Below are positions 1 through 19,298 of a stretch of DNA of 64,000 nt, piece after piece (position 1 is the first letter of the stretch; every line of letters begins with the position of its first letter). A program made the position numbers and the translations under genes. Below the pieces are notes generated by a model. It searched no databases. It worked only from the letters and a program-made list of their open reading frames with translations, and was not told the DNA's origin. The stretch is from IMG/VR virus record IMGVR_UViG_2565956658_000004, positions 39,937-103,936 of that record; one strand, given 5' to 3'. Source of the DNA: a virus (lineage: Duplodnaviria > Caudoviricetes).

Positions 1-1198
1 CCCTACCAAATTAGCAACAAATGTTACACCAGCAGCAGCCAAACCTGATCCTGCAAAAACAAGTAATGCTGCAACCTCGGCAACCCAACCTAATTTAATG
101 ACAGGCGTAACTCCAGAAAAAGCAGCAACAGCAGTTTCATCTGATTTATCTCAGCAGAATACGAAGCAACCAGTTTCAATGTTTACAGATACATCGAATC
201 AGAATACTGCACAATCTGCTGGCAATCCTTACGCTATTCAGTCAAAGGGCAATAGTTTTAGTTATGCTGATCCACAAGCCGCAGCGCAGGCACGGGCAGC
301 AGGTGTTCCTGAACTTCAAGGCTCAGGTATTCAAACTGGATTAGGTATCCGTGGTGTTAAAGATTTTATGGCAAATACCCGTGAGATGGGAGCCAGTGAT
401 CAGCAAATACAAGCTGCTCTGGCTCGTCGAGAAATGAATTTGGGAATGCAGGGTTTTGGTGGAATTGCTCGACAGCTACAAGTACAAGAGCGTACACCAG
501 CGCAAGAAGCACAGTTGCAGACCGAAATCCAAAGAATAAGCACTCCAATAGCAGGTGCACGTGGCTTAACAGCAAGCCAGCGTAACCAGATTAATGACCT
601 ACAACAGGGTTATTCAAACCGTGAAAATGACGTTTATAAAACTTATGCTAACAATGCAGCAGCTTTACAGCGTGAAGCTATGGGGCAGGTAGGACAGAAT
701 TATCGTGCTGAGTTAGGTGAGCAAGGCGCAAATAGTCGTTTTAACTCTAATTTAGAACTTGATGCTCAGAAATTTAATGCTACGAATGATCTGGCCAACC
801 GTCAATTTAGTGCTGAACAGTTAAGCAACATGCCAGCACGTATGAAGCAACAAGCTGAATTGAATTTGCTTCAACAGTATGATGCAGCTCAGACTGATGA
901 AGAAAGAAAGCCGATTCTTGAAAAATTAGGGATGTTGAGAGGGCAGGCGCAGCAGCAAGTTGGTAAACTTACACCATTTAAGCAGTATGAAGTGGTTGAT
1001 GCAAAAGGTAATGTGACACAGCCAGCAAAAGATTATTTCATTGATGAACAAGGGCGAATTATCGACCCAATGGCAAATATGCAGTCGCAGCAAATTCCAC
1101 AAGCAGCGATTGAACATCTGCGCAAGAATCCAAATCAATCTACATATTTTGATGAAATGTTTGGTAAAGGCTCCGCTGCTAAATATTTGAAGGGGTAA
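1..1198 (+). CDS. Virion internal/DNA-ejection protein (5' end outside window)
   Basis: Frame is open from base 2; Q/A-rich helical sequence; C-terminal IPQAAIEHLRKNPxxxxYFDEMFGKGSAAKYL segment of the kind seen in podovirus ejection proteins; precedes the large polyvalent gene. Confidence 0.65.
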   Translation, partial: PTKLATNVTPAAAKPDPAKTSNAATSATQPNLMTGVTPEKAATAVSSDLSQQNTKQPVSMFTDTSNQNTAQSAGNPYAIQSKGNSFSYADPQAAAQARAAGVPELQGSGIQTGLGIRGVKDFMANTREMGASDQQIQAALARREMNLGMQGFGGIARQLQVQERTPAQEAQLQTEIQRISTPIAGARGLTASQRNQINDLQQGYSNRENDVYKTYANNAAALQREAMGQVGQNYRAELGEQGANSRFNSNLELDAQKFNATNDLANRQFSAEQLSNMPARMKQQAELNLLQQYDAAQTDEERKPILEKLGMLRGQAQQQVGKLTPFKQYEVVDAKGNVTQPAKDYFIDEQGRIIDPMANMQSQQIPQAAIEHLRKNPNQSTYFDEMFGKGSAAKYLKG

Positions 1199-1202
1199 AG
1201 AC

Positions 1203-1224
1203 CACCACCCGAAGGGTGGTTTTG
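1203..1224 (+). terminator. Intrinsic terminator
   Basis: ACCACCC-GAA-GGGTGGT followed by TTT just after the stop codon. Confidence 0.7.
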
Positions 1225-1276
1225 CTTACTAAATTTTATACAGATATGGTAAAATTGATGTTAGAGGTGAGGGTAC

Positions 1277-1831
1277 ATGCTGATTAATCGAGAACGTGAA
1301 AAAATCATAAATTTGGTGGCTTATTTTGCAGATAATGTAAATTATCTTGGCAAAACAAAGTTATTCAAATTGCTTTATTTTGTTGATTTCGAACATTACA
1401 AATTGACTGGTCGTAGTGTTACTGGTTTAGATTATTATGCATGGAAAATGGGACCAGTTCCTACAATGTTGTTTGATGAAATAGAACGACCTGAGCCAGA
1501 CATGCAGGAAAAGGTAAAGGTGCAGCAAAAGACTTTACAGAATAATAAAAAGATGTTCTGCATTGAGGCTATTGCTCAGTTTGATAGTCGATTATTTACC
1601 AAAAGAGAATTACGACTTATAGGGGAATTTGCTCAAAAATATAAAGAAGCGAAAGCGGAAGACATGGTTGAAGCCACTCATTTGGAAAATCTACCATGGA
1701 GTAAAATCTATAACTCCCCAACAGGCAAGCAGAAAATAATTCCATATGAGTTGGCATTAAGAACTCAAGAGTTGGAAGAAATGAAAGCCTTTATAAGTGA
1801 AAGACAAGATTTTATTGGTTTGTTTAAATGA
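1277..1831 (+). CDS. Panacea (DUF4065/SocA-like) antitoxin
   Basis: GKTKLFKLLYFxD...TG..Y.AW.MGPV and ATH....PW motifs. Confidence 0.85.
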   Translation: MLINREREKIINLVAYFADNVNYLGKTKLFKLLYFVDFEHYKLTGRSVTGLDYYAWKMGPVPTMLFDEIERPEPDMQEKVKVQQKTLQNNKKMFCIEAIAQFDSRLFTKRELRLIGEFAQKYKEAKAEDMVEATHLENLPWSKIYNSPTGKQKIIPYELALRTQELEEMKAFISERQDFIGLFK

Positions 1832-2241
1832 ATGATGTAGGTTCGGTTTTTCTTCATAAAGAATTTGAGTTTGCTGATGGTGGAAAAGCACAAAAATTCT
1901 TTGTAGTTATTGGTAGGCATAATGGGGTTGTGATTGCTGCTAAAACAACTTCACAGCAACATGGGCGTGGGATTAGTTATGGCTGTCAACCTTCAGACAG
2001 ATTCCATAATTTTTATCTACCTACAGGTAGTTGTTACTTTGACAAGTGTACATGGGTTTGTCTTGATGAATTTTATGAGTTTTCGGACTCTGAGTTATTT
2101 AATGCAAGGTTTAGTGGCACGGTTCGATTTACTTGTACTCTTGATGCTGCACATATGAAAATATTACAGGACTGCGCAAAGGAGAGCGAAGACATAACAT
2201 CAATTCAGGAAAATATTATTAATAATAGCATTGTGCAATAA
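1828..2241 (+). CDS. Putative PemK/MazF-like toxin paired with the Panacea antitoxin
   Basis: F.F.DG...KFFVVIG...KTTSQ pattern; 4-bp overlap (ATGA) with the antitoxin gene. Confidence 0.6.
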   Translation: MNDVGSVFLHKEFEFADGGKAQKFFVVIGRHNGVVIAAKTTSQQHGRGISYGCQPSDRFHNFYLPTGSCYFDKCTWVCLDEFYEFSDSELFNARFSGTVRFTCTLDAAHMKILQDCAKESEDITSIQENIINNSIVQ

Positions 2242-2363
2242 AATTATTAATCATCTGCGTGATTAATAAGAATTGTTTAAAGAATGGTTCAAAACTTTGC
2301 ATGGAATGGAAATAGAGTTAAAATGAACAAAATATGCATATTTTTTAGACATAAGGTGGTTCA

Positions 2364-3101
2364 ATGGTAGCCCCGATACCGAAAACAAAAGCAGTCGAAT
2401 TGTTAGCGGAACTTTCTAGCTATGAGAGATTGCAAGTTGTCATGTCTGAATTTAATACAAATAAATTTTTAAGAGATATTAAAAAACTATTTGATAGTAA
2501 GGTAGACATTGCTAATTTGTGGATATGTAAAGGGTTTGTTTATTCTTTATCTAATCAACCTGAAGCGATGGTTGATGCTTTTAGAAATGCACAAAAATTA
2601 GGTGCAACTGATAAATACTCAATGTTCAACCAGGCTACACAATATATTCTTCATGGATATTATGAAAATGCCATCGAGGCATTAGTATTAAGTAAGGATG
2701 ATGTAGCCCAAGAACAGCTTGAAAGAATCGCTATCTCGACTTTTGATTATGATCAGATCGAACAGCATGACTTAAGTGTAGTGGCAAAAAATAATTTATT
2801 AAAAAGAAAATCAAGATTAGCTGAGCTAGGTATTGATATTAATGAGGCAAAGGTACTCATGAATGCTTTCTTTCAAATATTAAAAAGTCGTAAATGTAGG
2901 TTTGGTTTGGTACATCATGATACTAATCAAGACGAATATTATCTGCATTTTGAGGCTGTTACTGATATTGATATGACACATTCAGTTTTGAATGAGTTTG
3001 ACATTTATATTGCTGAGCATCCAGAGCTTTATAAAGTTAATTCTAAAATTAATATTGTACTCACGCCTATTTCATCAATTAGACATAATTCTGTAGCGTA
3101 A
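2364..3101 (+). CDS. Hypothetical TPR-like protein, partner of the downstream HEPN gene
   Basis: Helical-repeat pattern (W..KG.VY......EAM.DAF..A..L); 1 bp from the HEPN gene. Confidence 0.5.
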   Translation: MVAPIPKTKAVELLAELSSYERLQVVMSEFNTNKFLRDIKKLFDSKVDIANLWICKGFVYSLSNQPEAMVDAFRNAQKLGATDKYSMFNQATQYILHGYYENAIEALVLSKDDVAQEQLERIAISTFDYDQIEQHDLSVVAKNNLLKRKSRLAELGIDINEAKVLMNAFFQILKSRKCRFGLVHHDTNQDEYYLHFEAVTDIDMTHSVLNEFDIYIAEHPELYKVNSKINIVLTPISSIRHNSVA

Positions 3102-3102
3102 C

Positions 3103-3510
3103 ATGAGTTTTAAGCCACAACATAGACTGAGTTATGCTCTCGAGCTTTATGATTCTGAATTTTCAGGTGAGGTACATAATCGATGTATCATTCATCAAGC
3201 ATATTACGCAGCTTTGAATCAGGTTCAATACGAAATTGAGAATCGACTTTTTTTTATTGTTGATGATGAGGATCGCAAAAAGCAGTCACACAAGGCGTTT
3301 ATAGATGCCTGTGAAAATCAGTTGGGAAAATTGGTTGCTGGTGATGTCCGTAGACAATTGTTGGTCTCTATTGTCAATAACTTGCGTAGAGCAAAAAGAC
3401 TGCGAGAAACTGCTGATTACAGATTAGATTCAAATATTGATAAAACCAGTGCTCAGGTTGCATTAAGACATGCTCAGGAAATATTTGATACTCTAGAGCA
3501 ATTTGATTGA
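3103..3510 (+). CDS. HEPN-domain protein (putative RNase toxin)
   Basis: R....QAYYAA, SH..FI and R.TADY motifs. Confidence 0.8.
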   Translation: MSFKPQHRLSYALELYDSEFSGEVHNRCIIHQAYYAALNQVQYEIENRLFFIVDDEDRKKQSHKAFIDACENQLGKLVAGDVRRQLLVSIVNNLRRAKRLRETADYRLDSNIDKTSAQVALRHAQEIFDTLEQFD

Positions 3511-3538
3511 AAAAAAACCTGCAATTGCAGGGTTTTTA
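3510..3538. terminator. Bidirectional terminator
   Basis: A-run, CCTGC-AATT-GCAGG, T-run between convergent genes. Confidence 0.7.
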
Positions 3539-3570
3539 ATAGTTGATTCGCAAGTCGAATGATGTCAACA

Positions 3571-4386
3571 CTATTTGATTTGATTCATGACACTTTGCAC
3601 TTGTTCTTTAGTTAAAGGCTTCATTTTTTCATTCATACAAGCACTATAATCTTCAATAATCATATTTTCTTGTTTAGTAATTAATTCATCTTTTAGACAA
3701 CGATCCTTTTCACATTTACTGTTTCGCACTAGCTTCTTAAAATCATCATATCTTTTAGTATTCGCATTTTTGGTTTTTAAAATATTAAATAATTTCTCTG
3801 AGTAAGCTAAATATTTCTCTCTATTTCTAGGGTTTATAACTTGATCAGGGTCTTGTCCAATTAACGAATGTAATAGATGCCCAAACTTAGGTGCATATGC
3901 TCTTTCTTGCTTTGAATTTAATTCTCCATCAGTATGGGCATATGCATCCGCATATGCATGTATCAATAGCCCCGCTTTCCATATATCTTCAGGATCTTTT
4001 AGGTTGTTTTTTATTGCATTTTCTATAGATTTTCTTCTAGTTTTAATATCCTCACTATTGCCACCATGCAATGAGTGAAGTTTAGTTACTACATCGTTGG
4101 TAAATTCATTACTTGCAAAAGGAAACTTATTTTTAACTGCATTCACAATTGCATCGTATTTTTTATAAGCATCAGGATATTGTGAGAAATAAGTTAACGC
4201 CATTGTATCTGAGATGTTTCTTCCAGCTATTCTAGATACCATATAAGATGTAGTTGAGTGCCCCACGCTACTTGATTTATTAGTACTTGGAGCACATTCT
4301 ATTACTGCATCGAAAGGACTTAGTTCACCAGCAAAGGCCGTTGAACTAAAAAGCGATAACAAGCTAAGTAAAAGAACTTTTTTCAT
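3571..4386 (-). CDS. Secreted putative Zn-dependent hydrolase (phospholipase C/P1 nuclease-like)
   Basis: Signal peptide MKKVLLLSLLSLFSSTAFA; GH..T, SQYPD, LH.LH, HAYADAYAH and GH..DPD metal-ligand motifs. Confidence 0.5.
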   Translation of the reverse strand: MKKVLLLSLLSLFSSTAFAGELSPFDAVIECAPSTNKSSSVGHSTTSYMVSRIAGRNISDTMALTYFSQYPDAYKKYDAIVNAVKNKFPFASNEFTNDVVTKLHSLHGGNSEDIKTRRKSIENAIKNNLKDPEDIWKAGLLIHAYADAYAHTDGELNSKQERAYAPKFGHLLHSLIGQDPDQVINPRNREKYLAYSEKLFNILKTKNANTKRYDDFKKLVRNSKCEKDRCLKDELITKQENMIIEDYSACMNEKMKPLTKEQVQSVMNQIK

Positions 4387-4479
4387 TTTTATTCCCCTTA
4401 TGTATATAAAATTTAATAATAAACAGACATATGAGGGGAAAGTCAAACTTATTTTTCTGGCGCTTCTTTGCTTGCCTTA

Positions 4480-4567
4480 TTTCTAAATCATCTGTGAGAT
4501 GAACAACCATGGGTAAATCGCAATCGTATTCAACAAACTTTTCTAAATCATCTATGCGATGAACAAC
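4480..4567 (-). CRISPR. Type I-F mini-array 1 (2 repeats, one 32-nt spacer)
   Basis: Minus-strand 28-nt repeats GTTGTTCATCGCATAGATGATTTAGAAA (4540-4567) and GTTGTTCATCTCACAGATGATTTAGAAA (4480-4507) with TCATC/GATGA stem and TTTAGAAA handle; spacer 4508-4539 is exactly 32 nt. Confidence 0.9.
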
Positions 4568-4700
4568 TAGAGAAATCTAACAACAATCTCTCTAGCTTCA
4601 TTAAGATAGCACAACTTTTGCTGTGCCACCTTTTTTTTGTACAGGTGGTTAATTCATTGTTTTCAATGAAATTAATTTAGCGACCACTTGCAGGGTTTTT
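4568..4700 (-). promoter_or_regulatory. Leader/promoter of mini-array 1
   Basis: Extended -10 TGcTATCTT (4611-4603); AT-rich IHF-like AAACAATGAATTA; A-run-GG tract like those in I-F leaders. Confidence 0.5.
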
Positions 4701-4706
4701 TATCGA

Positions 4707-5591
4707 CTATTTGCCTCTAAAAAATTTTATCAATTCAGATTGTTTAAGGTGATAAGGGTAATCTTGCATTATCCTTGCATCTATTTCTTTAGTTCGTTCA
4801 ACTCCTAAAGTCAAACTAGCTGAAAATGCCCCATCAGAAAAATGACTTTGGATATCTGATGCCATTTTTGGATTGAGTAATCTGATCGAGTCTGAGTAAC
4901 AAATCCACCATCTAGAAACCCACATCATATGTAACGCTGTATTATTTGCATGGCTCTCAAAGTTTGGGCTCTTCGATTGATATTTTTTTTCTGCATTGCT
5001 ATACAGCGCAATCAAATGGTGAACATACTCAACTGCAACAGGAATTGATTCAAATGGGATTTCGTCAATGTGCTCAACATTGAAGCGCTGGTGAACAAGT
5101 TTATATGCATCGCTGTAACTTAAATGCTTGGTCTTAGCTACAAGCATGTTTACAGCATTGGTTAGCGGTTCTCGGTCAGATTTATGCGTTTTGGCTAAAA
5201 ATTCCTTACGGACAAAATAGCAATCTTCAAGCTGCTCGAATACTTCCCAAGCTTGGTCAGTGTCGAGCATTTTAGCGTGTCGTGCTGCACCGCGTTCTGT
5301 CCAGAGGGTCAACACACGTGTTTTGGATGAAATTTGTGTGTGAATATTATTCACGAGCAAATCATTTGTGAGTAGCTTTAAACTACTCACAAAATCTTTG
5401 AGTTCTTGGCCAGCAATTTTGAAGAAGTGTTTACCCTCAACAAAACGTTGTTTGTTGTTTGAAAAGTTTTTACGAATATTGTCTGTGTCGGTGCCATAGA
5501 AGCCGGAAAGCATTTCGGTAGTAATAACAGGAATGGATTTGAAGTTTATAATTGATACTTGCGTATCATTGATTTGTGCTAAACTTGCCAT
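4707..5591 (-). CDS. Phage antirepressor (ORF6N N-terminal domain plus P22 Ant-like C-terminal domain)
   Basis: PVITTE.L..FYG...I..NF..NK.RF.EGKHFF and LWTERGAARHAKMLDTDQAWEVFE.LEDCYF motifs; YKLVHQRFNVEHIDE. Confidence 0.9.
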   Translation of the reverse strand: MASLAQINDTQVSIINFKSIPVITTEMLSGFYGTDTDNIRKNFSNNKQRFVEGKHFFKIAGQELKDFVSSLKLLTNDLLVNNIHTQISSKTRVLTLWTERGAARHAKMLDTDQAWEVFEQLEDCYFVRKEFLAKTHKSDREPLTNAVNMLVAKTKHLSYSDAYKLVHQRFNVEHIDEIPFESIPVAVEYVHHLIALYSNAEKKYQSKSPNFESHANNTALHMMWVSRWWICYSDSIRLLNPKMASDIQSHFSDGAFSASLTLGVERTKEIDARIMQDYPYHLKQSELIKFFRGK

Positions 5592-5661
5592 GTCAGTTTT
5601 CCTTGTTCGGAAGTTGATAACTAGCCCCATAAATCTTGGTCGAGGAGTGGGGCTTTTTTTT
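5591..5661 (+). ncRNA. Putative sar-like antisense RNA against the antirepressor RBS
   Basis: Extended -10 TGcTAAACT (5577-5585) inside the first antirepressor codons; AGCCCCA...TGGGGCT-T7 terminator ending about 5661. Confidence 0.6.
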
Positions 5662-5725
5662 ATCCCCATTGGGGATGTATTTAATTTATAACCACAAAAA
5701 CCTATTGTCAATCCCCAATGGGGAT
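5662..5725. promoter_or_regulatory. Two 15-bp palindromic operators between ant and arc
   Basis: ATCCCCATTGGGGAT (5662-5676) and ATCCCCAATGGGGAT (5711-5725). Confidence 0.8.
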
Positions 5726-5770
5726 ATTACTATTAATTTAATAAATCGAAATTTTGTTAGAGAAATAGAT

Positions 5771-6133
5771 ATGGCTAGAAATCTTGATGTTGAATACAAG
5801 ATGCGTATGACGCAAGAGCTTAAGGAAAAGATTGTTGAATCAGCAAAATTTCATAACCGTTCTATGAATGCTGATATTGTTGCGAGAATTGAACAAAGTT
5901 TTGAGCCTGATTTTTTTAAAATAACAAAATTGAATGACTTAGAAGAACCCGCAGCCTCCATCGAAATTGGTGCTATAACAATTGGTTTGTATGAATCTCA
6001 ATACAAAGAGATCAAACTAACGCAACTAGGTCTTAATTATTGGCTCTTAAGTTACCATGCTGTTTTGTGTCATCTAAGAGATGAGAGTGCCAAGCAACTT
6101 ATTGAGCTGGGTTGTGCCTACACCACATTGTAA
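5771..6133 (+). CDS. Arc/Mnt-family ribbon-helix-helix repressor
   Basis: YKMRMTQELKEKI.E.AK..NRSMNADIVARIEQSF. Confidence 0.9.
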   Translation: MARNLDVEYKMRMTQELKEKIVESAKFHNRSMNADIVARIEQSFEPDFFKITKLNDLEEPAASIEIGAITIGLYESQYKEIKLTQLGLNYWLLSYHAVLCHLRDESAKQLIELGCAYTTL

Positions 6134-6182
6134 ATCTAGATTTTAAAGAGGATATAAACATATTCAGTATTTTAAATCATGA

Positions 6183-7313
6183 TTAATTACACTGCACCAT
6201 ACCACCAATATCTCGACACACCCCACCATTTTGCTGAAAATAAGTGCCATTATTGCCTGCATATCGGTTGCCTTGGTTATCCCAACACCCTGATCCATCG
6301 CAACTCGTCATATGCGTGGACTGTGGTGCTGGAGCGGGGGTGGTCATTGGTGTTGAGTTGTTGATGGTAGTGTAATCATCGTAACGAGTTTTAGAACTTG
6401 AGTAGCTGTCGGTATTTTGATAATAATCGTTTGAAGTTAGAGAGCTTGTATCCTCTGTAGAGCGTGTACGATAAACGTACTTATTGCTATTGCTGTCATC
6501 GTATGAATGGTAATTGTTTGAATAACTTGACGTAGTTCCCAAATTATTATTTTGTCTTTCTTGTTGAGGTGGTGTGGTTGTTCCGTTATTCAAATCCATT
6601 TCCCGAGGCTTCACATCATGATTCTGTGGGTTTTGTTGCACAAACTGAGCAAAAGGGTTTTCTTCTTTCTTTTCTTGTGGCTTAACAAATTGAGCAAACG
6701 GATTCTGTTGATTAGTGGTTTGCTGTAGTTGATTATCTTGAGTTGGGTTTTTCCGCTGCACTAAGCTCGAACCAACAGCTATAAAAATAAAGGTAGTAAC
6801 AAATAAAATCACTGTGGCGCTAACTAGTGGTATCCACCAAGATTTTTTTTGATATCTATTATTTAAAGTTTCCTTAACATATTTTGTCTGTTTTCTTGCA
6901 TAGGCGAAATACCAAATAATGATATACCAAAAGCCTAAACCTCTTGCTACAGTTGTGGATTGCTCAAGATTAGCATCGGCTAAATACGAAAGAAAATTAA
7001 TGAATAAAATAAATACAATGGTAAAAATCAACCAGTTTCTCGCATTACTCGCTTCATTTGAGTTGCCGAGAGCTTGCCAATTTTTCATTTGTAAAAATGA
7101 ACCGAAAATAGGAGTAAACAGTAAGCTCCAATTTGCAGCCGCATTTGGATTCCACAATTCGATTTGTTTTTTTCTTGGTTGCGGTGATTCTGTTTTTATT
7201 GGCTGTTGATGTGTTTGTGCAGGCTGAATATTTTTAATTTCTAATTTATTACCACAGCTACTACAAAACTTAGCATCGTTACTATTCGTTTGCCCACATT
7301 GATTACAGAACAT
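6183..7313 (-). CDS. Zinc-ribbon inner-membrane protein carrying a copy of the ejection-protein N-terminus
   Basis: N-terminal CxxC..CxxC, 3-4 TM helices, then NPFAQFVKPQEKKEENPFAQFVQ, a S/T/N-rich linker and a Cys-rich C-terminus. Confidence 0.75.
   Translation of the reverse strand: MFCNQCGQTNSNDAKFCSSCGNKLEIKNIQPAQTHQQPIKTESPQPRKKQIELWNPNAAANWSLLFTPIFGSFLQMKNWQALGNSNEASNARNWLIFTIVFILFINFLSYLADANLEQSTTVARGLGFWYIIIWYFAYARKQTKYVKETLNNRYQKKSWWIPLVSATVILFVTTFIFIAVGSSLVQRKNPTQDNQLQQTTNQQNPFAQFVKPQEKKEENPFAQFVQQNPQNHDVKPREMDLNNGTTTPPQQERQNNNLGTTSSYSNNYHSYDDSNSNKYVYRTRSTEDTSSLTSNDYYQNTDSYSSSKTRYDDYTTINNSTPMTTPAPAPQSTHMTSCDGSGCWDNQGNRYAGNNGTYFQQNGGVCRDIGGMVQCN
6636..6706. repeat. 71-bp inverted repeat, copy 1
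   Basis: Reverse complement of 7454-7524 with one synonymous mismatch. Confidence 0.95.
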
Positions 7314-7453
7314 TTCCCCACCAAAAAATTTAATAATTATATAAAGTTACGATAGAGTATTTTTTAAACTTCTTCAATACACCCCTCTAAGGTTCGACCA
7401 TTTTCATTATAAAAATCATGATAGACGCATATTTTAGGAGTGCGTCATGTCTG

Positions 7454-7524
7454 AGAATCCTTTTGCTCAATTTGTTAAGCCACAAGAAAAGAAAGAAGAA
7501 AACCCTTTTGCTCAGTTTGTGCAA
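7454..7524. repeat. 71-bp inverted repeat, copy 2
   Basis: Encodes the N-terminal NPFAQFV repeats of the large virion protein. Confidence 0.95.
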
Positions 7525-10500
7525 AAAAGTCCTGAACAAGACAAAGAACAAGGCAAAGACTTTCTAGGTCATGCTCAAGATGCAGGTGCATCTTTAATGA
7601 AAGGTCTGGCGGCTGTGCCAGAAGCAATTGTTGGTCTAGCTGACATACCGACTGGTGGACGTGTTGGTAAATTTATTGAGCAAGATGTTGGTTTAGATTT
7701 AAAGGGAACAAAAGAATATTGGAACGATAAACATACCGACCAATACAAGGCCCAACAGAAACAGTTTGATCAAGCCGATGGAATTGTTGATAAAGCAAAA
7801 GTTGTTCTGACCAATCCGTCAATGATTGCAAATACGGTTGTTGAGTCCGCTCCATCAATGCTACTGGGTGGTGCAATTGGTCGTGGTTTAAGCTTGGCAA
7901 GTAAAGCTATTACCCCGATTGCTGGTGGTGCCATAGGTGAGGGTGCTGTCATGGCTGGGCAGCAGGTAGAAAATATACGTCAGCAAACTGATGATAAATT
8001 ATTGACACCTGAACAATCGGGCCTGTCTATTGCCACGGGTGCTTTAGGTTCATTGTTTGGCTATGCTGGTGGTACGATTGCCAAAAAGTTTGGCTTTGAC
8101 GATATTAATACTGCAATGGCATCAGGGCGATTAAACTCACAGCAGGTTGCTGGAGAAATTCAAAAAATACCATTAAAAAGTATCCCAAAATCCATTATTG
8201 GTGGTGCGATTACCGAGGGTTTACTGGAGGAATTGCCACAGTCTGTTTCCGAACAACTTTTACAGAATATTGCTTTAGATAAACCTCTGGATGAGGGGGT
8301 GGATTCTGCAATTGTTATGGGAACATTGGCAGGTATGGCAATGGGTGGCGGAATGAATACTTTTTCTGCCCCTAGTCATTATTTGCAGAATAGTAGGGCT
8401 TATAACGAACAGCAGGCTCTGGCAGCACAAGAAGAACAACGATTAGCTGCGGAATCACTGGCGCAAGAACAGCAGCAATTAACTCAACAACAGCAAAAGT
8501 TATTTGGTTTTGGCAAAGAACCTGATACATCGATGAATGTAGATGATGTATATGCGAAAACAGGTATTCCACCAAACCCTGTAATTGATGAAAGTAAATT
8601 ATTGCCTAATGCGCTCAGCTATGAAAATGGTATTGATTACCAGCCACCACAGATAAATAGTGGGCTGACATCTGGTAATGAAGTACCACCAAATGCTGAT
8701 GACATACCTTATGCACCACAGCAGATGCACGATACATGGTCTTTGGCTAATGAAGCACAGCAGGATTATGGGAACTCAATCGAGTTTGGTGCACCTGAAT
8801 CTAAATCCCGTAATTTAGAATCACAAATTCAGTTTAATGATACGTTTGGTCAAACTACACCTGATCCAGTGGTTGACTACAATGCATTGAGTCCATTTAG
8901 TAATGTACAGCAACCCTTTGTTGATCAGACAAAATTATCTGAGCGGTTAGGAATAAATCCGAATGCTGGCCCAATGTCATCAGCGGCAGCGTTAGCCGTA
9001 GACAGTGGTGCATCACCAATATTCCAGACACACCAGCCGTTGCCACAGAACAACAACCACAAACGTTATTAACTACACAGACTGAACCAGCACAAGAACC
9101 AGCCTCAAAGCCAACTTTTGCAAGTGACCATCCTACGGGTTCCGTCACCTATGCCCAGGACATTGCGAATCAGGCATTGCAACAGTATCAGGGAGATACA
9201 TCAGCTTTGACCAGTAAAGGTTCGTTTGGGCATAGTGCTGCAACTGAGTTGATCTATTCTAAAAATTCACCATCGTACAGTGACGTTCAGGTTGAGGATG
9301 CTGGAGACAAAGCCATTGTCAAGCTGACCAACGCAAGAACAGGTCTGGTTGAGGAGAGATCGTATCCACATGAGTTGGTACGTTTTAATCAATTTTTGGA
9401 TGGGGTAAGTCCTGATGTTTCACCAAATACCCAAGCGAATGATGTTGGCACGGGAACACCAACGCAGACAGATAGAACTATTTCGTCAAATACAAACGCA
9501 CGATTCAATAGTGAAACTCAGGCAACAGGCGCACATGAAGAATCAACGGGAGAAAACTTAAAATCCAATGCTGTAAATCCAATTCAAATTACATCAGAAA
9601 AAATCGCTCAACTGGAACAACAACTTTCAGAAACTAAGTCTGTTCCACAACGAAACCCTATTAAGCAGCAGATTGGTGAGTTAAATTCTCAACTGGAAAA
9701 TCAGGGACGTGCATCATGGGAAAATATGTCACCTGAACAGCGTCAGGCTGTGGTAGGGCAGATTGATACCAATATGCCTTTGGGAATGAAGAAGAGATTA
9801 CCTACAGCAGAATGGGACAGGATTGGCCCAGCAGTTAAGGAAAAGTTGATTGGAGTGATGGGACAGTCTTTTCAGCCATTTTCACAGATCGATACTAGTG
9901 CCCATGAAGCAGCAACAAGTCATTTAAACGATATACCTCAACCTACGCAAGCACAGATCGAAGCTGGTAACTATAAGAAAGGTCATGTACGAATACATGG
10001 TTTAGATATTTCGATTGAGAATCCAAAGGGTTCAACACGTTCGGGTACACGTCCAGATGGTACTGAATGGTCACACGATATGAGTGATCATTACGGTTAT
10101 ATAAAACGTACAAAAGGTGCGGATAATGAGCATATTGATACCTATATCGGTAATAACCCTGATTCAGACCAAGTTTATATTGTCGATCAATTAGATCAGC
10201 AAACGGGTAATTTTGACGAGCATAAAGTGATGCTTGGGTTTGATAATCAGGATGCAGCAACCAAGGCATATCAGTCCAATTTTGACAAAGGATGGAAAGT
10301 AGGCCCGATTCGTTCAATGAACATAGAGCAGTTTAAAGATTGGTTAAAGAATGAAGATACTTCAAAGCCTGTTGCGGATATTAAAATTTCTAATTCTAGT
10401 CAAAGTGCGTTATCTGAGCCAGTTGCACCAAAAAATATAAAAGAAGGCATTGAGAATATTCGCGCTGAACAAAATCGTCAAAAGGTTTTGGTTGATATGC

Positions 10501-11421
10501 ACAATAGTGTTTATGGCTTGGCATCGAATGAACAATTGCAAGAGTCGCTGAAACACTTAAATAAAGAAATCGTGAAAGCTCAAAAGCAAAGTGAGAACGA
10601 GGTTGTAAATGGAAAGCGTAGTACACGCAAGGCAGTTGCAGCAGGTGCTTTAGATCGATTTTTAAAAAATCGTGTAGATTTGGAAATGTATATCAAAGCA
10701 CGTAAGAATGGGGAGTTAAAGCAACGAAATAAAAAAATAGATGACTTTAGTAGAAACACTAAATTAACTCGTATGATCCAAATTCAATCTCAGTCAGAAA
10801 TTGACCAAATACATTTTATCCCAAGTCACCTGATGGATTCAGTGAATAGACTTGGAGATGTGGTCAATGATTTGGCATCGATGAGGACTGATAGCATCAA
10901 AACAAATCATGAATATGCTGTTAAATTGTTGAATGAGATTGTCAAGTCGAATCCAAATGTACTTGTACATATTGTTTCAGATTTGAATAGTATTGAAGAC
11001 ACCTCTATTCGAGCAAATTTAACAGCTGGTGGATTTTTTGTACCAGAACAAAATACTGTTTATATCTATCCTAGTTCTGAAGCGTGGAATAGTTCAGCGT
11101 TAGAGTTATTGAACCATGAGTTGGTACACTCTATTACTGAACAATATATTTCAAAAGGTCTAATGTCTCTTGAAGATATTGGTCATTTGGATAATTTTAT
11201 AAATATAATTAATGACTATCGAATTTTGAGTTATGAAAAGTTATCAGATGATGTTCGAGACAGGCTCGATTATGCAGTAACTACAAACCCTCATCATGAA
11301 ATTCTTTCTGTCGGGGTCGCAGAAACAGCAGTTCGTCAAGAATTGAAAAACATCATTGGTGAAGATGGTCTTCAGCAGTTATATAAAATATTCACGAATA
11401 TATCCATAAAGGAAAAGCAAT

Positions 11422-11628
11422 ATGAGCAACATGAACAAAGAGGAAATTCGGGAAGAAATTCGAAAGGAAACGATAAAGATGTATCAAAGTCTGCCAGTGG
11501 AATCTCAGAAAAAATTCAAAAAGGATTTGTCAAAGCTGAGTCAGACAATGGAATCAAACGAGATACGGGGAATCCGAGCGGAGATTTATCAGGAAATGAA
11601 AACTCTGAATATTCAAATACCCAATTAG
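11422..11628 (+). CDS. Possible overprinted small helical protein inside the polyvalent gene
   Basis: RBS-like AAGGA before ATG; amphipathic 68-aa sequence; the main frame here is low-complexity. Confidence 0.4.
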   Translation: MSNMNKEEIREEIRKETIKMYQSLPVESQKKFKKDLSKLSQTMESNEIRGIRAEIYQEMKTLNIQIPN

Positions 11629-14600
11629 AAGCGGATAACAATTTTGAATGGACTGAATCAATCAACAGGGTGTTTGGGATTTTCACTCAAAACAGAGCGA
11701 TTGAGCACATCATTTCTTTTTTTAATCATTTCAAAATGTCCACTACACAAGATGCTTCGATTAGTGGACGTATTAAGGTCACTTTGGGTAGGGCTAACCT
11801 CAACAATGTTGGTGATTTGGATACCGCGAGCTTTACGGTTCAAGTTGTTTCTAGTTTTAATAAGCTTCCTAAAATCATACAAGATAATGCCACTTATCAA
11901 GATGAAAACGGAGTAACCAACAATTATAGCGTAAGCGGTGTTTGGCATAATGACACGCTCTATATAGTCACTGATCAGATATATGGAAATATAGAACAAC
12001 AGCTTACTACATCTGATGCATATGAAGAATTATTAGCACATGAAGTTATAGGACATTTTGGTGTTCAGCAATTATTTGGTGATGAATATCAATCAAAGTT
12101 TCAGCAGTTATATAACGTACTTGGTGGAATAGATGGTATTCGGAACATAGCAAAAAATAATGGTGTCGATATGCAGCAATTTGAAAGTGCTTATATAGAC
12201 CCGTTTAAAAAAGGTGTAGAAGAAGGCTATTACAGTGCCCTGGATGCTCAACAAGCAGTTGTGGGAGAGTTATTCGCATTCATTGCACAGAACGCAGAAA
12301 CACGACCATTTGTGCGGCAAAAATTAAAAGAAGTCATTGGCTATATCCGTCAATGGTTTAGAGATCATGGGTTTAGCAAATTCTTATCACGCTACAACGA
12401 TGCTGATTTGATCATGTTTTTATCAGAAGCACGGAAAGCTGTTGTAGATCGTCGTTATTTTGGAAAATTTAAAGATCAGACTATTTCAACTAATAATAGC
12501 GATAAATTATTTAGCCGCGGTCAGTCTACAACCCGTACAGATACCACAGTAAAACAGGTACGAGATAAACTTGTTTCACGATTTGGTGAAGAAACGATTT
12601 CAAAACTGGAAATACAGGAGAAGTTAAATATTCTTGATACCTATGAAAAGGCAGGTGTTGAGGGTTTTTATCAAAGTGGCAAGGCAACTTTAATTGCAGA
12701 TGCCTTAACCAATGACACAATTATCCCAACATTTCTACATGAATTAGGTGGTCATGGGGGATTCCAGAATATGATGGATGCCAAACAGTACGATGATTTA
12801 ATGCATCAGTTTGATCGTCTAGTGGCACAGAACAACCCGATTGCACTTGAAGCTAAACGCCTTGCTGAACGGGAAACAGATCCAGAAGTACAGCATCTTG
12901 AAATGCTACCTTACTTACTGACCTTAGCATCCAATAACCAGATTAAAAATGCAGTTCATAAAGGTAATGTAAAACGCTTAATTTCGGATTTGAAATCCAA
13001 AATTAAGGCTTGGGTTTATGACCGTTTGGGGGTAAACCTAAATCTTGATACAAATGATATTGTTGCATTAGCTGAACGAATGATTGATAAAGGTACTACT
13101 AAGGCAGCTCAAAGCAATCAGCCTTTATATAGTCGCCAGCCTATTAATAGTGCAATTAACAGACTAAGCCAAAACATTAAACAAATGTCAGTTAAGTCAA
13201 TTAAGGACAAAACAGGTTATAAATGGACTGATTGGTTGGGGATAGGGCTATCTAGTTTAGGTCGTCGTCAGCTTACTGAAATTTATAGCAAAATTTTACC
13301 TCAACTCAACAAATATAATGAGCTTGCGGCACAAATGGATGCTGATAAAAATGATGCTGGTGCTGAAGCTGATAGTATCGTGCGTGAGTGGGCTAATCTA
13401 AAAGATGAAAATCAGCTTGCAGAATTGATGCACGATGCAACTTTAGCCAAGATTGACCCATCAAAACCGTATGTGAGTGGCGATAGCATTTCTAAATATA
13501 AGCAGTTGCGTGATGATTATAATTCATTATCGCCAGAAGCACAGGCAATGTATTTGAAAGCCCGTGATGCGTATAAAAAGCATTATGCGAAAGTCCATCA
13601 GGCGATTAAAGAGCGTATTTTACGTTCTGAATTAACCAATCATAAAAAAGCTGATTTGTTGAAACAGATGGATAACCAGTTTTTTGGTTATACAAAAGGG
13701 GTGTATTTTCCATTAGCACGCTTTGGTAAATATGTGGTCGTGATGCGTAACCAGAATGGTGATGTAGAATGTGTTAGCCGCGCCGAAACCATGGGAGAAG
13801 CACAAGCGTTACGTTCTGAACTTATGCAGAAATACCCTAATTTTAAGGTAGATCGAGTAATTCTTGATAAAGAGTTTAACGCATCTCGTGATGCCGTTGG
13901 TCGTGGGTTTATGACCAGTCTATTTGCAGAGGTAGATAATTTAGGTTTATCAACTGCGGAACAGGCTGAATTTGAAGATACCCTAAGCCAGCTTTATTTA
14001 TCTTCTATGCCCGATTTGAGTTGGGCGAAACACGGTATCCATCGTAAAGGTACGGCTGGATTTAGCCAAGATGCCCGTCGGGCATTTGCACAAAATATGT
14101 TTCATGGGGCTGGATACCTTGCAAAGTTACGCTATGGTGATCAACTTGCAGAGCAGCTTGATGATATGCAGAAATATGCAACAGAGCAGGGCAAACAGGA
14201 TGACACGTATGACCAGCCAACCGCCCAGCGTGTCATTGATGAGATGAATAAACGTCATGATTTATTGATGAATCCTAAATCTCATCCATTATCCAGCGGC
14301 TTAACAAGTCTAGGATTTATATATTATCTAGGTCTATCACCTGCGGCAGCAATGGTCAATTTATCGCAAACTACTTTGGTTGCTTATCCGATTATGGGTG
14401 CAAAATGGGGCTTTGATAAAGCAGCAACAGAACTGTTAAAAGCGTCAAATGATTTTAGAAAAGGTGTTGAGTTCCATAAAGTTAAATGGGAGGGAACTAA
14501 AACAGACTTATATAAAACCATAAGTGCTGATATTTCAAAATTTCTAAATAAGGATGAAAAACAGGCTTATGATAGTGCTGTGGCAAGTGGTGTAATTGAT

Positions 14601-15920
14601 GTGACACAAGCACATGATTTAGCTGGCATTGCTCAAGGTGAAGATAGCGGCATTATGTGGAAAACACGTCCAATTATGCGTGCAGCAAGTGTTATGTTCC
14701 ACAACGCAGAACGATTTAACCGTGAAGTGACCTTTATCGCTGCTTATCGTCTTGCACGTCAATCAGGTTCAAACCATGATGCAGCCTATACCCAAGCGGT
14801 AGATGCAACGTATAAGGGGCATTTCGATTATAGTTCTGGCAATCGCCCACGTATCATGCAAGGTAATGTGGCTAAAGTTCTTCTGTTGTTTAAACAGTTC
14901 GGTCAGAACATGATTTACACCTTGGCTCGTCAGACATATCAGTCAATAAAAGGTGAAACGGACGCACAGCGTAAAGAAGCCCGTAAGTCACTCGGTGCAA
15001 TTTTGGCAATGCACGCAACTTTTGCAGGTGTACTTGGTCTACCTGGTGTTTGGCTTATCATGGCTATTGCATCAGCATGGGGTGGAGATGATGACGAGCC
15101 ATGGGATGCAGAAGTGGCATTGCGTAATTATCTTGCTGAAGCATTCAACCCAACTATTTCAAATATGTTGATGAAAGGTGCACCACGTGGTGTTGGTATT
15201 GATCTGTCTGGTCGTGTTGGTATTAACAATCTTTTATTACCAGATGTACAAGAGGGATTAGAGGGTAAACGTTGGGCTGAATCTGCTATGGCTGGTGCAT
15301 TAGGACCAGTAGCAGGCATTGGTACAAATTTAATTAAAGGTGGTCAGGAGTTATCAGATGGGCATACATTGCGTGGTATGGAAACTATGCTACCTGTATT
15401 TCTGAAAAACTTTGCCAAGACCTATCGCTATGGTGATGAGGGTGTTCAAGACAAAACTGGTATATCCATTATGGATGAAGTCAGCTCTATGGATTTACTT
15501 GTTCAGGGTATGGGCTTCTCACCATCTGATGTGCGTACAGCGAATGAGGGTAAATCGGCAATTTACCAATTAAATCGAAAGCTAAACGAACGTCGTAGCC
15601 GATTAGTGACATTATGGTCACGAGCGAAAATGATGAATGATCAAAACGAAATGGATAAAATCTGGGAAGAAATCCAACAGTTTAATGAGAAAAATCCATC
15701 TCGACGTATTAATAGAATCAATCTAAACCAAAGCTATAAGAATCGGAAAAATCGTATTGATAAAGCTGAGGATGGTATTTATCTCAGTAGAAATCGCCAA
15801 GATGCCCGTGAAGCTGGTCGTTTTGCGTTTGGCGAGTAACCCTCTGTAAGCCTCGAATAAATATCCAAATTCAATAAAACTCTGCGTTAAGACGTGGGGT
15901 TTTTTTATTAGGTGAAAAAA

Positions 15921-16301
15921 ATGCAGGAAAATACAATTCCTTGGGTTCTAAAATTAGTGCCTGCTGTTGTTGGGGCAATATTAGCACTTGTATTGAGTGG
16001 TGATATTGATAAAAACGGAAAAATTCAAGTTTCGCTTGGTGTTATTGGAAAGTTTCTAGCAAGTGTAACTGTTAGTTTGTACGGTGGTTCAGCATTTATC
16101 GAGCACTTTGATCTATTAAATAAATCAACAATGTATCAAGGATTTGTGATGTTGATTTTTGCTGTTTTTGGACTGTTAGCTATTGGTATTATTTACCAGT
16201 CTATTGCATTAATGCAAGGTAAGCCGCTTTTTGAAGTAATAGGTGAAATAAAAGCAGCCTTTATCTCAATTCTTGGCAATGGCAAGGGTGGGAACCAATG
16301 A
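15921..16301 (+). CDS. Holin
   Basis: Three TM helices; overlaps the lysozyme start. Confidence 0.75.
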   Translation: MQENTIPWVLKLVPAVVGAILALVLSGDIDKNGKIQVSLGVIGKFLASVTVSLYGGSAFIEHFDLLNKSTMYQGFVMLIFAVFGLLAIGIIYQSIALMQGKPLFEVIGEIKAAFISILGNGKGGNQ

Positions 16302-16918: not shown

Positions 16919-16930
16919 TTCACCATTGCA

Positions 16931-16965
16931 AACGCTCATTATCTTCACTGATAGTGAGCGTTTTG
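16931..16965 (+). terminator. Intrinsic terminator after the lysis genes
   Basis: AACGCTCATTATC...GATAGTGAGCGTT-TT hairpin. Confidence 0.65.
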
Positions 16966-16987
16966 GTATATTTTATAATGAAATAAC

Positions 16988-17015
16988 TTGAAAAATAGTC
17001 ATGCTATGGTAGTTT
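16988..17015 (+). promoter_or_regulatory. Sigma70-like promoter of mini-array 2
   Basis: TTGAAA-16 nt-TAGTTT with TGn extension; predicted +1 about 17021-17022. Confidence 0.55.
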
Positions 17016-17017
17016 CT

Positions 17018-18387: not shown

Positions 18388-18388
18388 A

Positions 18389-19195: not shown

Positions 19196-19298
19196 AGCCT
19201 GACTGTGAAATTGCCTTAATATACAATCTATTGTGGCTTTTACAATTCAAATTCATTAAATTGTGGGTAAATAAGGACAAGTCAAAAGTTGTCGTCTG

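Follow-up and report, generated by a model that had tools for sequence, protein, structure and literature searches.

A prophage membrane protein carries, in its C-terminal tail, a copy, exact at the protein level, of the tandem motif at the N-terminus of the giant ejection protein encoded beside it. We put at about one in two the probability that this protein is a membrane-tethered tag mimic that interferes with ejectosome assembly, a SieA-like exclusion by motif mimicry read from sequence. The window analysed here is the whole stretch of 64,000 nucleotides (positions 39,937 to 103,936 of viral record IMGVR_UViG_2565956658_000004). In its bases 1 to ~22,000 lies the right end of a temperate podovirus prophage, F116-like (Hollowayvirus-like) and from an Acinetobacter-type host. 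Here, the gene of the 376-aa zinc-ribbon membrane protein (P0001; 6183..7313, minus strand; defined by the ORF list, translation, Pfam, and AF2) sits between Arc/Ant genes and the ejection-protein gene, from which it diverges.

The two genes share a long inverted repeat. A repeat search found arms at 6632-6706 and 7454-7528, each 75 nt long, 73/75 (97%) complementary, and spaced 747 nt apart. The minus-strand arm (6632..6706) is the tag copy in the membrane-protein tail (residues 204-226 plus flanking bases), and the plus-strand arm (7454..7528) is the original tandem NPFAQFV tag of the giant protein (residues 4-26 of the ORF from 7447); both were delimited by repeat search, alignment, and translation. 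In the DNA alignment, 7454-7524 and the reverse complement of 6636-6706 are identical at 70/71 nt, followed by a second mismatch and then three matching bases. The sole mismatch in this core, at 7461, is synonymous (proline codon CCT versus CCG), and the translations share 23 identical residues, NPFAQFVKPQEKKEENPFAQFVQ. Both the shared peptide and its single silent difference had been put forward in the original prediction, and both stand. The whole 103,936-bp record holds only these two copies of the repeat.

The repeat is also found outside this record. It adjoins both genes in Logan contigs from three other metagenome studies (X5, wastewater; X6, biofilm; X8, wastewater), which break at the repeat and cannot show orientation, expression, or absence. 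This bears on whether the repeat could stem from a chimeric join in one assembly. Such an artefact would fit the age of the record, whose data set is 2013-era, and the breaks at the repeat in short-read contigs, but the occurrence of the repeat in three other studies leaves the idea with a negligible chance of being right. Furthermore, in X8 the repeat unitig has twice the depth of its flanks (30.8 versus 14), and the tail recurs at 88% identity in a second protein cluster (P0091).

The comparison supports recent copying, as had been proposed. The membrane copy fits the giant allele of its own prophage, while the giant allele of a relative (G002) differs from it at four further sites. We suggest that a 69-75-nt in-frame patch would have been copied from the neighbouring giant gene into the membrane-protein tail, by gene conversion or templated insertion. 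The patch might instead be a neutral recombination scar, left by an inverted duplication or template switch between divergent genes and in frame by chance in a tolerant linker. Disordered linkers do tolerate insertions, and the exact copy is limited to one lineage (P0001/P0002, P0091, and the X5/X6/X8 contigs); in the alignment P0004, the nearest relative over the linker, is simply without it. The giant-gene cassette is itself newly placed beside the membrane gene: in blastn against five relatives (L003, L004, L005, L012, and L013), two homology blocks meet in the divergent intergenic region (7314..7446), where the membrane-gene block runs to 7396 and the giant-gene block begins at 7382. A scar is nevertheless quite unlikely. 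The patch coincides exactly with the two tags and the spacer between them, reads in frame and in the sense direction, and has 0 differences in contigs that diverge by ~1% elsewhere. It also lies at the tail position where independent tag variants, with no identity at the DNA level, occur in 13/32 other members of the family.

A further possibility is that the 747-bp segment between the repeats, with both promoters and both 5' ends, is invertible and forms a phase-variable switch. Inversion would exchange the N-terminal modules in frame and yield the zinc-ribbon/TM module fused to the giant protein, and an MSE-tag fused to the tail. Inverted repeats do flank the segment, and each arm is in frame with its gene, which would leave both products with an open frame. 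Source-run depth between the repeats is also low (25.8 versus 45-47 in the flanks), which is unexplained. We regard a switch as very unlikely, however, as no recombinase is present among the ORFs of window positions 1-20,000, and the nearest integrase-like ORF (23345-24202) lies beside the tail-fibre genes of a second prophage. In the present orientation, each protein aligns colinearly with its homologues on either side of the repeat. No reciprocal MSE-tag-tail protein occurs among 31 shorter matches, and no fused long form among proteins of 659-2000 aa. The second of these searches is weak, since a full fusion would be longer than 2000 aa, and the repeat is not phased by the contigs.

The tag belongs to a giant protein that is a predicted ejection protein. 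Judged by homology, this protein is a relative of T7 gp16 (IVP-D) and N4 gp50, fused to "polyvalent" effector domains. Its first frame (7447..9072, plus strand; 541 aa; PHROG, tblastn) contains the tag and a Gly-rich N-terminal domain homologous to H66 gp60 and to the N-terminal region of N4-type virion RNA polymerases, and matches phrog_30335 at 5.7e-143 and phrog_2206 at 2.6e-15; its tblastn identity to Hollowayvirus giant proteins is 54%. A second frame (8997..15839, plus strand, start approximate; Pfam, PHROG, open frame) encodes InPase (192 bits), LPD39 (155 bits), and a DarB-like C-terminal part. Across the giant protein, phrog_30335 gives E-values of 5.7e-143 and 0, and tblastn gives 54-57% identity to Hollowayvirus proteins of H66, F116, and PA8. 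By homology, it is of the H66 gp60 type, a polyvalent, IVP-D-like giant ejection protein. A place in the virion is predicted for it from the H66 record, in which gp60, but not gp59, is marked as a virion protein verified by mass spectrometry. Hardies et al. assigned H66 gp60 to the T7 IVP-D family (PMC4819975). The homologue in G002 has the same tag at its N-terminus.

The giant gene is not one continuous frame in this record. The original prediction took the protein starting at 7447 as a single ORF; in its place are two overlapping frames, 7447-9072 and ~8997-15839, with a 1-nt length difference near 9019 relative to the X5, X6, and X8 contigs. Therefore, the source gene of the tag may be defective in this record.

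The likely partner of the tag is encoded just upstream. We term this candidate ejection protein X, on the basis of its gene, which in relatives lies directly upstream of the giant gene; its homologue H66 gp59 abuts gp60. The window begins within X and holds its C-terminal 398 aa (2..1198, plus strand; phrog_11341; 637 aa in the record). X ends in an IPQAAI..FDxxFGxGAA module, QQIPQAAIEHLRKNPNQSTYFDEMFGKGSAAKYLKG (1085..1195, plus strand), which motif conservation and AF2 point to as a putative docking site for the NPF tag. AF2 models the module as three short helices at pLDDT 93-97, and it contains the single FDxxFG match of the record. Foldseek found nothing in the PDB at E <= 0.001 for the X C-terminal model, and X matches no Pfam family.

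Tandem NPF tags are a widespread N-terminal signature of long podovirus ejection proteins, to judge from the viral contigs that we scanned. With degenerate forms of NPFAQFV and NPFAKYAQP we found 63 loci. In 41 of these, the motif begins within residues 2-12 of a long ORF (250 or more residues left beyond the motif), mostly in tandem. PHROG labels among 22 of the tagged ORFs included virion RNA polymerase N-terminal region, DarB-like, internal virion transglycosylase, and "released from the phage upon host infection". This signature is new here, and NPFAQF, NPFAQFV, NPFxQF, and NPFAKF were found in no paper whose text was searched. Within the window, an NPFNQFV in the large terminase (43494-45128) was set aside because that terminase belongs to the second prophage and is absent from G001, G002, G004, and G006; a PDB sequence search with the same terminase gave no match.

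Tag and module are consistently found together. We examined the upstream gene in 27 of the 41 tagged loci, all from metagenomic phages; in 24/27, it ends in IPQAAI..FDxxFGxGAA, and its stop abuts the tagged start. A reverse scan, which searched by the C-terminal module without use of the tag, returned 60 C-termini, 57 with a readable next ORF. This ORF carries a strict tag in 42/57 loci and a loose tag in 54/57, and 50/54 loose tags are tandem. Types also match: across nine phages, four tag types pair with four X C-terminal module types, with 0 mismatches. The NPF tag occurs with IPQAAI..FG.GA..LKG (window, G002), LKPFxGxLD with VGTSNGKPVYED..GNRF (G001, G004, G006), KPWE[ES]F with GGYRFKGGNPADQNNWEK (H66, 8P, USP_25), and [WF]GxNDxxV with ..KGTQYMKDGQLRVKG (PA8). 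KPWE is confined to the tags in H66, 8P, and USP_25 (two each), with none in PA8. This co-variation may partly reflect linkage, because tag and module are neighbours on the DNA in most phages and could travel as one mosaic module. These data agree well with the earlier suggestion of docking between the NPF repeats and the ORF 1-1198 C-terminus, and we infer that the repeats bind the C-terminal module of X.

The membrane protein combines conserved and variable parts. From its N-terminus onwards, P0001 consists of a zinc ribbon, a membrane module made of helices, a disordered tail, and, at the C-terminus, a small Cys-rich domain. The zinc ribbon (residues 1-25, presumed cytoplasmic; 7239..7313, minus strand) belongs to Zn_Ribbon_1 (PF13240, residues 2-24; 27.8 bits versus a cut-off of 25), and its C3, C6, C17, and C20 are invariant in an alignment of 22 homologues. 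The membrane module (residues ~57-183; 6765..7145, minus strand) was delimited from the family alignment and AF2 helices at 56-65, 68-82, 85-111, 116-150, and 160-188. Residues 189-333 have pLDDT below 50 in AF2 and are read as disordered. The Cys-rich domain (~residues 336-376; 6186..6308, minus strand) was recognised by homology to secreted DUF4124 proteins and by AF2 strands, and shares 65-86% identity with the C-terminal ends of DUF4124 proteins that bear signal peptides. DUF4124 (PF13511) itself has no Pfam match in P0001 or X, and X has just local BLAST similarity to DUF4124 proteins. Searches of P0001 and X against Pfam, PHROGs, NCBIfam, and PADLOC returned only the zinc ribbon and unnamed PHROGs.

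The tail, with its tag copy, is probably periplasmic. This topology relies on the positive-inside rule and domain sharing: a very basic loop (141-158) precedes the last helix, and the Cys-rich end is common to signal-peptide proteins, so the tail should lie in the periplasm and the zinc ribbon in the cytoplasm. The copy does follow the last TM helix, and the periplasm-facing tail that the original prediction placed there agrees with both features. With four to five helices in the AF2 model, the number of membrane spans could also be even.

Tag-like motifs are common in the tails of related membrane proteins. The protein collection holds 81 homologues of P0001. The pattern N[PYR]F.[QK][FY] occurs in 11/34 tails, against 0.025 expected from shuffles. 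In an 8-mer comparison with tags from the reverse scan, which excluded P0001 and P0002, 13/32 tails beat all 200 shuffles, while 15/32 had no tag-like match (p>0.05). The tail motifs match tags of other phages and include NYFDQFD, NPFAKYVQP, EGNPFAKY, NRFEKY, NPFSDPNY, and LKPFYGKLD/KPFYGKLD. One protein with a different, single-TM anchor (P0093) has three tag-like motifs in a row. KPWE in tails may not be a mimic, because it lies inside a longer conserved family element, ..DW.NG.I.PP.

A tail motif need not equal the tag of the resident phage. Co-variation of the membrane peptide with the phage's own ejection N-terminus, which had been expected, holds in one of the three prophages with both genes, the window. 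The membrane protein of G002 has no tag, and that of G004 has NYFDQFD and KPWEMDW beside a resident tag of LKPFTGKLD. A scan of 247 genomes of the genus gave one full-length relative (G006), and prophage-by-prophage co-variation is therefore readable in these three prophages. Homologues without the copy had been named as an objection to a decoy role. The exact copy is indeed mostly absent, but many homologues carry other tag variants, and therefore the objection does not hold.

The membrane protein might use the tag as a shared docking motif without being an exclusion decoy, and act in ejectosome sensing and signalling or in lysis control. The target of its tail would then be X or some periplasmic host factor to which the tag binds too, and the zinc ribbon in the cytoplasm would pass on a signal for abortive infection or induction. 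The family alignment is compatible with such a role, as the zinc ribbon and membrane module are strongly conserved and the tails are modular, some with unrelated C-terminal domains. In G002 and G004, the gene is divergent from holin-like and lysozyme genes (a lysis cassette). The membrane module without tails also occurs in many bacterial phyla, according to a family-alignment scan of species-representative genome contigs that mainly returned distant membrane-module homologues in other phyla. We nonetheless consider this role unlikely: Pfam, NCBIfam, and PADLOC identify no effector or signalling domain, and several tag types in one tail are more easily explained by competition for several phage types than by lysis control.

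We favour the tethered mimic, for which we propose the following mechanism. During infection, the tandem NPFAQFV tag of the giant protein would dock on the three-helix C-terminal module of X when the proteins, once ejected, come together again in the periplasm and at the inner membrane. The lysogen would display the membrane-tethered mimic of this tag on its disordered periplasmic tail. By capturing the X C-terminus of related phages that infect the cell, the mimic would keep the ejectosome from being completed and stop the DNA from entering. The copy, its recurrence in other samples, the spread of the tag, its link to the X C-terminus, and the tag-like motifs in related tails are observed, whereas we infer the topology, the binding, and the exclusion. 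Speaking against the scheme, a simple sigma-70 scan of 5500-7700 returned five sites against 7.5 expected, none of them in the intergenic region.

The locus could also be one instance of a broader podovirus tag code, a tentative reading that we hold a little short of even. The code would comprise at least four cassettes, in each of which a tandem N-terminal motif of the last, largest ejection protein pairs with a 35-residue module of the tunnel protein encoded upstream. Prophage tails would be arrays of one to three copied or mimicked tag types, and an array of several tags might exclude several phage types at once. Gene conversion from the resident ejection gene, perhaps caught in the act in the window, would be one way to update such an array.

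The molecular basis of the SieA-type block of DNA injection by prophage membrane proteins is still unknown, and the periplasmic meeting of ejected proteins is known for only a few short-tailed model phages. This locus offers a concrete candidate answer to both, with a 7-residue tandem tag, a candidate helical module to bind it, and a membrane protein that carries the tag. If the tag binds the module, sensitivity to exclusion should be predictable from sequence, by comparing tag type with tail repertoire, and there would be an explanation for the way in which ejection-gene ends are exchanged as mosaics. Short motifs, rather than fold, would also serve to recognise a new class of anti-phage proteins. 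The question is relevant, too, when phages are chosen for use on lysogens of Acinetobacter and Pseudomonas.

Ltp of TP-J34 and gp15 of HK97 are lipoprotein and membrane Sie proteins of the envelope that act on siphovirus tape-measure proteins and stop DNA entry after adsorption. To our knowledge, neither these two proteins nor HxsA is a copy of a motif of the phage itself. The periplasmic HXS effector is also located in the envelope and stops DNA entry after adsorption, with HxsA proposed to bind DNA (PMC13128918). Polyvalent phage proteins, a kind thought to be packaged and injected, share InPase and LPD39 with the giant protein of the window, but the accessible text of the paper on them describes no N-terminal tandem tag, partner, or host-side mimic (PMC5512222).

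SieA of P22 is a close functional parallel to our proposal. It blocks DNA injection, and escape mutations fall in two ejection proteins whose interaction is required, in the C-terminal region of each; P22 sieA adjoins immunity-I type regulators, and a plasmid with sieA, orf59a, and mnt is mentioned (PMC10883804). SieA is a prophage-encoded inner-membrane protein of a temperate podovirus, as P0001 is predicted to be. However, SieA has 162-164 aa, whereas P0001 has 376 aa, with a zinc ribbon and a 190-residue tail that SieA lacks. SieA proteins are small, with three to four TM helices; P0001 has predicted membrane helices and a gene found in prophages. The SieA motif FxRYPxEAxxFNK (PMC10883804) is absent from P0001 by eye, and Pfam, PHROGs, NCBIfam, and PADLOC gave no related family. 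These motif and family searches set P0001 apart from SieA types A-C, as they are described in the accessible text, with no sequence relation. The SieA mechanism, as far as that text goes, is not known to involve mimicry, whereas the proposed active part of P0001 is a copied ejection-protein motif.

The contact that we propose between tag and module has counterparts in T7 and N4. In T7, the gp16-N "molecular tape" stabilises the C-terminal regions of gp15 in the periplasm (PMC8954989). In both T7 gp15:gp16-N and N4 gp51/gp50-NTD, the N-terminal part of the last large ejection protein binds and stabilises the C-terminal region of the tunnel protein encoded just upstream, and this contact forms once the proteins have been ejected, in the periplasm or at the inner membrane, as proposed for the window (PMC8954989, PMC13434306). 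The accessible text of these two papers describes no such tag code. In the window, by contrast, the contact would pair a short linear motif, present in tandem, with a three-helix module of 35 residues, the two being exchanged together as four cassette types.

The peptide shared by the membrane protein and the giant protein lies in an inverted repeat. A repeat search finds 75-nt arms at 6632-6706 and 7454-7528 (97% complementary). Base-by-base alignment of these arms bears out the predicted 70/71 nt match with one synonymous difference: within those 71 nt the sole mismatch, at 7461, falls at the third position of a proline codon (CCT versus CCG). The original prediction also holds at the protein level. 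The peptide NPFAQFVKPQEKKEENPFAQFVQ occupies residues 204-226 of the 376-aa membrane protein (6183-7313, minus strand), in the tail after its last helix, and residues 4-26 of the ORF starting at 7447, where it forms the tandem NPFAQFV-type tag of the giant protein. The whole 103,936-bp provirus record has only these two copies. The membrane and giant genes carry the same repeat in contigs from three other studies (two wastewater, one biofilm), and the tail recurs in a second protein cluster (P0091, 88% identity). Thus, the repeat is a real feature that is stable within a lineage. Misassembly, raised at the outset as a possible source of the copy, is contradicted by those contigs and by sequencing data set X8, where the repeat unitig has approximately twice the flank depth; we regard it as negligible. 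In run X1, probably the source data set, the 823-nt contig between the repeat copies (window 6669-7491) has a depth of 25.8, with 45-47 in the flanks and 75 in the repeat unitig; this low depth could reflect base-composition bias or a subpopulation difference. That the arms form an invertible switch is very improbable: there is no recombinase nearby, reciprocal products were not found in protein searches, and the current orientation is the colinear one.

The copy appears to be recent. By blastn, the window is homologous to relatives' membrane-gene loci up to 7396 and to their giant-gene loci from 7382 on. Two relatives, G002 and G004, have the lysis cassette as the divergent neighbour of the membrane gene and the giant gene at another place. 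This homology switch and the different arrangement indicate that, in the window lineage, the giant-gene cassette came to lie next to the membrane gene. The tail patch is exactly tag, spacer and tag, and replaces or extends the linker where the homologue P0004 has QQNN-NISVD. It agrees with the giant allele of the window itself, while the G002 allele differs at four further sites, which supports the suggestion of recent copying or gene conversion. We infer recent gene conversion or templated insertion between neighbouring divergent genes; that the product is a neutral scar seems unlikely. Only one of the three prophages with both genes, the window's, has a membrane peptide that agrees with its own tag. 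The G002 membrane protein has no tail motif of the tag type, and the G004 tail has an NPF-type-like motif and KPWE beside a resident tag of the LKPF type. These two relatives contradict the proposal that gene conversion as a rule keeps the decoy in step with the resident phage. Such a mismatch would be compatible with a protein that excludes other types of phage.

Degenerate IMG/VR scans point to the tag as a widespread N-terminal signature. They returned 63 loci (55 for NPFAQFV and 8 for NPF[AE]KY[VA]QP). At 41 of these, the motif begins 2-12 residues downstream of the initial Met, in an ORF that continues for at least 250 residues beyond the motif; most such ORFs extend past the locus edge, and the motif is usually doubled, 10-15 residues apart. 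The other 22 loci, mostly short frames or internal positions, are about as many as expected by chance. A PHROG scan of 22 tagged ORFs left 16 without a match. The others matched the virion RNA polymerase N-terminal region, DarB-like, transglycosylase or internal virion proteins, and phrog_2534, ‘released from the phage upon host infection’. The closest named relatives of the giant protein itself are Hollowayvirus giant virion proteins (F116, H66, PA8 and others; 54-57% identity). It has InPase and LPD39 domains (Pfam), which passages of PMC5512222 describe as domains of ‘polyvalent proteins’. In the relevant passages of Hardies et al. (PMC4819975), H66 gp60 is put in the T7 IVP-D (gp16) family and compared with N4 gp50. 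In the record, the giant gene is two overlapping frames, 7447-9072 and ~8997-15839 (split within 8997-9177), and contigs from the three other studies (X5, X6 and X8) have a one-base length difference near 9019; the split there reflects a genuine break of the frame or else an error in sequencing.

The tag co-occurs with a particular C-terminus on the upstream protein. We inspected the upstream gene at 27 of the 41 tagged loci, near-duplicates having been removed by eye. In 24 of the 27, the immediate upstream gene ends in a conserved IPQAAIDxLRxGxGTxAQFDAxFGPGAAxRALG, its stop mostly 0-8 nt from the tagged-gene start; the exceptions are L131, L151 and L117, the last being G002, with 3.8 kb between the two genes. 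Window ORF 2-1198 encodes the last 398 residues of a 637-aa candidate ejection protein, X, whose C-terminus ...QQIPQAAIEHLRKNPNQSTYFDEMFGKGSAAKYLKG is the sole such motif in the record and forms three short helices in the AF2 model (pLDDT 93-97). A reverse scan that did not use the tag (F-D-x-x-F-G-x-G-A-A) gave at least 119 loci, at least 60 of them with the motif 12-22 residues ahead of a stop codon. Among the matches listed, 57 had a readable next ORF; 42 of these ORFs start with NP[FY]xx[FY] (tandem in 41) and 54 with a looser tag form (tandem in 50).

Across Acinetobacter and Pseudomonas relatives, the bodies of X and the giant protein are homologous, and the X end and tag vary together. 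The window and G002 pair IPQAAI..[FY]F[DN]EMFG.G..KYLKG with tandem NPFAQFV; G001, G004 and G006 pair ..VGTSNGKPVYED..GNRF.. with tandem LKPF[ST]GxLD; phages H66, 8P and USP_25 pair ..GGYRFKGGNPADQNNWEK[VI] with tandem KPWE[ES]F; and phage PA8 pairs ..AEYEALPKGTQYMKDGQLRVKG with tandem [WF]GxNDxxV. No mismatched pair occurs among these nine. Shewanella phage Y11 has another X end and no obvious tag, and the start of the F116 record, where the annotated frame looks shifted, was left out of the comparison. The X end and tag are DNA neighbours in most phages, so linkage by itself could lie behind part of this co-variation; in the window, G002 and G001 the pairing is kept across a distance of 1.3-6 kb. 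The T7 and N4 literature offers, in the passages concerned, a structural precedent for the proposed contact between tag and X C-terminus: the T7 gp16-N ‘molecular tape’ is described as stabilising gp15 C-terminal regions in the periplasm (PMC8954989).

Two prophages adjoin each other in the provirus record. Prophage A, an F116-like podovirus, spans record 1 to ~62 kb; it begins in the record's first 40 kb, and its right end is window 1 to ~22,000. Its genes include a CI-like repressor, terminase, portal, major head protein and several large unnamed proteins; no tail sheath, tube or tape measure is recognised among them. Between X and the giant gene, which abut in other phages, window 1277-4446 holds moron-like genes: a SocA/Panacea antitoxin-type gene (1277-1831) with a small downstream ORF (1828-2241), an ORF pair with a weak HEPN match (2364-3101 and 3103-3510), and a DUF6765-like ORF on the opposite strand. 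Two perfect 16-nt palindromic arms at 5661-5726, TATCCCCATTGGGGAT and ATCCCCAATGGGGATA, at the junction of an anti-repressor ORF (4707-5711) and an Arc-like ORF (5636-6133), look like operator or terminator sites. Prophage B (~23,000 to ~48,000) has myovirus structural genes (sheath, baseplate, tape measure and Mu-type head genes). An integrase-like ORF (23345-24202) directly adjoins a tail-fibre gene (24384-25043). The prophage B large terminase (ORF 43494-45128) contains NNPFNQFVKD (~44,513, minus strand), a near-perfect tag within a folded enzyme; it is probably a chance match, since the expected number of loose matches in the record is one, although the Q-F-V agreement is striking.

The membrane protein is predicted to hold its tail outside the cell membrane. 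Its parts are, in order, a zinc ribbon (Pfam, 27.8 bits; cut-off 25), a helical membrane module, a tail of ~145 residues that is unstructured in AF2 (pLDDT <50 for 189-333), and a small Cys-rich beta domain; Pfam, PHROG, NCBIfam and PADLOC contain no family that names it. There are seven Lys/Arg in the loop before the last helix, seven in the N-terminal region and two in the loop after the first hydrophobic stretch. At the Cys-rich end, identity to the C-termini of ~200-aa DUF4124 proteins with typical N-terminal signal peptides is 65-86%. Both features argue for a zinc ribbon inside and a tail outside. Three true spans are likely, since the third hydrophobic stretch is short (~15 residues, Trp/Tyr-rich) and, in the alignment, shorter members of the family show it fused with the second one. 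The membrane module (motifs NWSLLFTP and YLQMKNW), unnamed in every family library searched, also occurs in genome contigs of Proteobacteria, Planctomycetota, Verrucomicrobiota and Victivallales (L022-L056), with N-terminal domains including GYF_2 or SHOCT in place of the zinc ribbon and the long tail usually absent. Secreted DUF4124 proteins ending in the same Cys-rich domain (P0053, P0067), one of which type is encoded by F116-like Pseudomonas phages, share two short stretches with X (residues 163-197 and 329-343 in P0086): E..Q..I...STP..G..GLTA.QR, 59% over 29 residues and present twice in P0053, and Y.VVDAKGNVT. Such proteins might represent another type of ejection-protein mimic.

Tag-like motifs recur in the tails of the family. 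Its 81 homologues have a conserved N-terminal module and modular tails. We examined 54 proteins; the anchor motif precedes the last helix in 35 of them, which together have 34 distinct tails. N[PYR]F.[QK][FY] occurs in 11 and KPWE in 12 of these (shuffle expectations 0.025 and 0.017), counts that are not independent events because relatives are counted together. The P0032 tail ends ELKPFYGKLDGEN. In an unbiased test, tails other than P0001 (the window protein) and P0002 were compared with the reverse-scan N-termini and six phage tags by best ungapped 8-mer, with 200 shuffles per tail. Thirteen of 32 tails beat all their own shuffles, and six more reached p = 0.01-0.05; the remaining 13, mostly with a different beta-rich C-terminal domain, had no match. 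Corresponding tail and tag 8-mers include NYFDQFDE and NYFDQFDS, NPFSDPNY and NPFSDPNF, NRFEKYGQ and NRFEKYNQ, EGNPFAKY and EGNPFAQY, and KPFYGKLD and KPFTGKLD. P0093 (204 aa; 637-kb contig, uncultured Acinetobacter) has a single N-terminal helix anchor and no zinc-ribbon module; it carries NPFLDPNYG, NLKPFYGKTDEE and QQKPWEVDW consecutively, then the same Cys-rich end. The KPWE matches are only suggestive of tag mimicry, because they are embedded in a longer conserved element (..DW.NG.I.PP).

The best-supported reading of these sequence comparisons is that the membrane protein acts as a tethered tag mimic in SieA-like exclusion. When a kin phage ejects its proteins, the mimic would compete for the C-terminal module of X. 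It is doubtful that the motif serves instead in sensing or in some other role. The strings NPFAQF, NPFAQFV, NPFxQF and NPFAKF were absent from the literature searched, and searches on superinfection exclusion with mimicry, decoy and ejection proteins yielded general reviews and unrelated work only. Exclusion via inner-membrane proteins that target ejection proteins is already known; the tag with its cognate module, the cassette co-variation and the tails displaying copied tags appear to be new. SieA of P22 is an inner-membrane protein, and escape mutations lie in C-terminal regions of the ejection proteins gp16 and gp20, according to passages of PMC10883804. The window protein resembles SieA as a proposed inner-membrane exclusion protein acting on ejection proteins, and differs from it in the specific molecular handle, the tag, that we propose for it.
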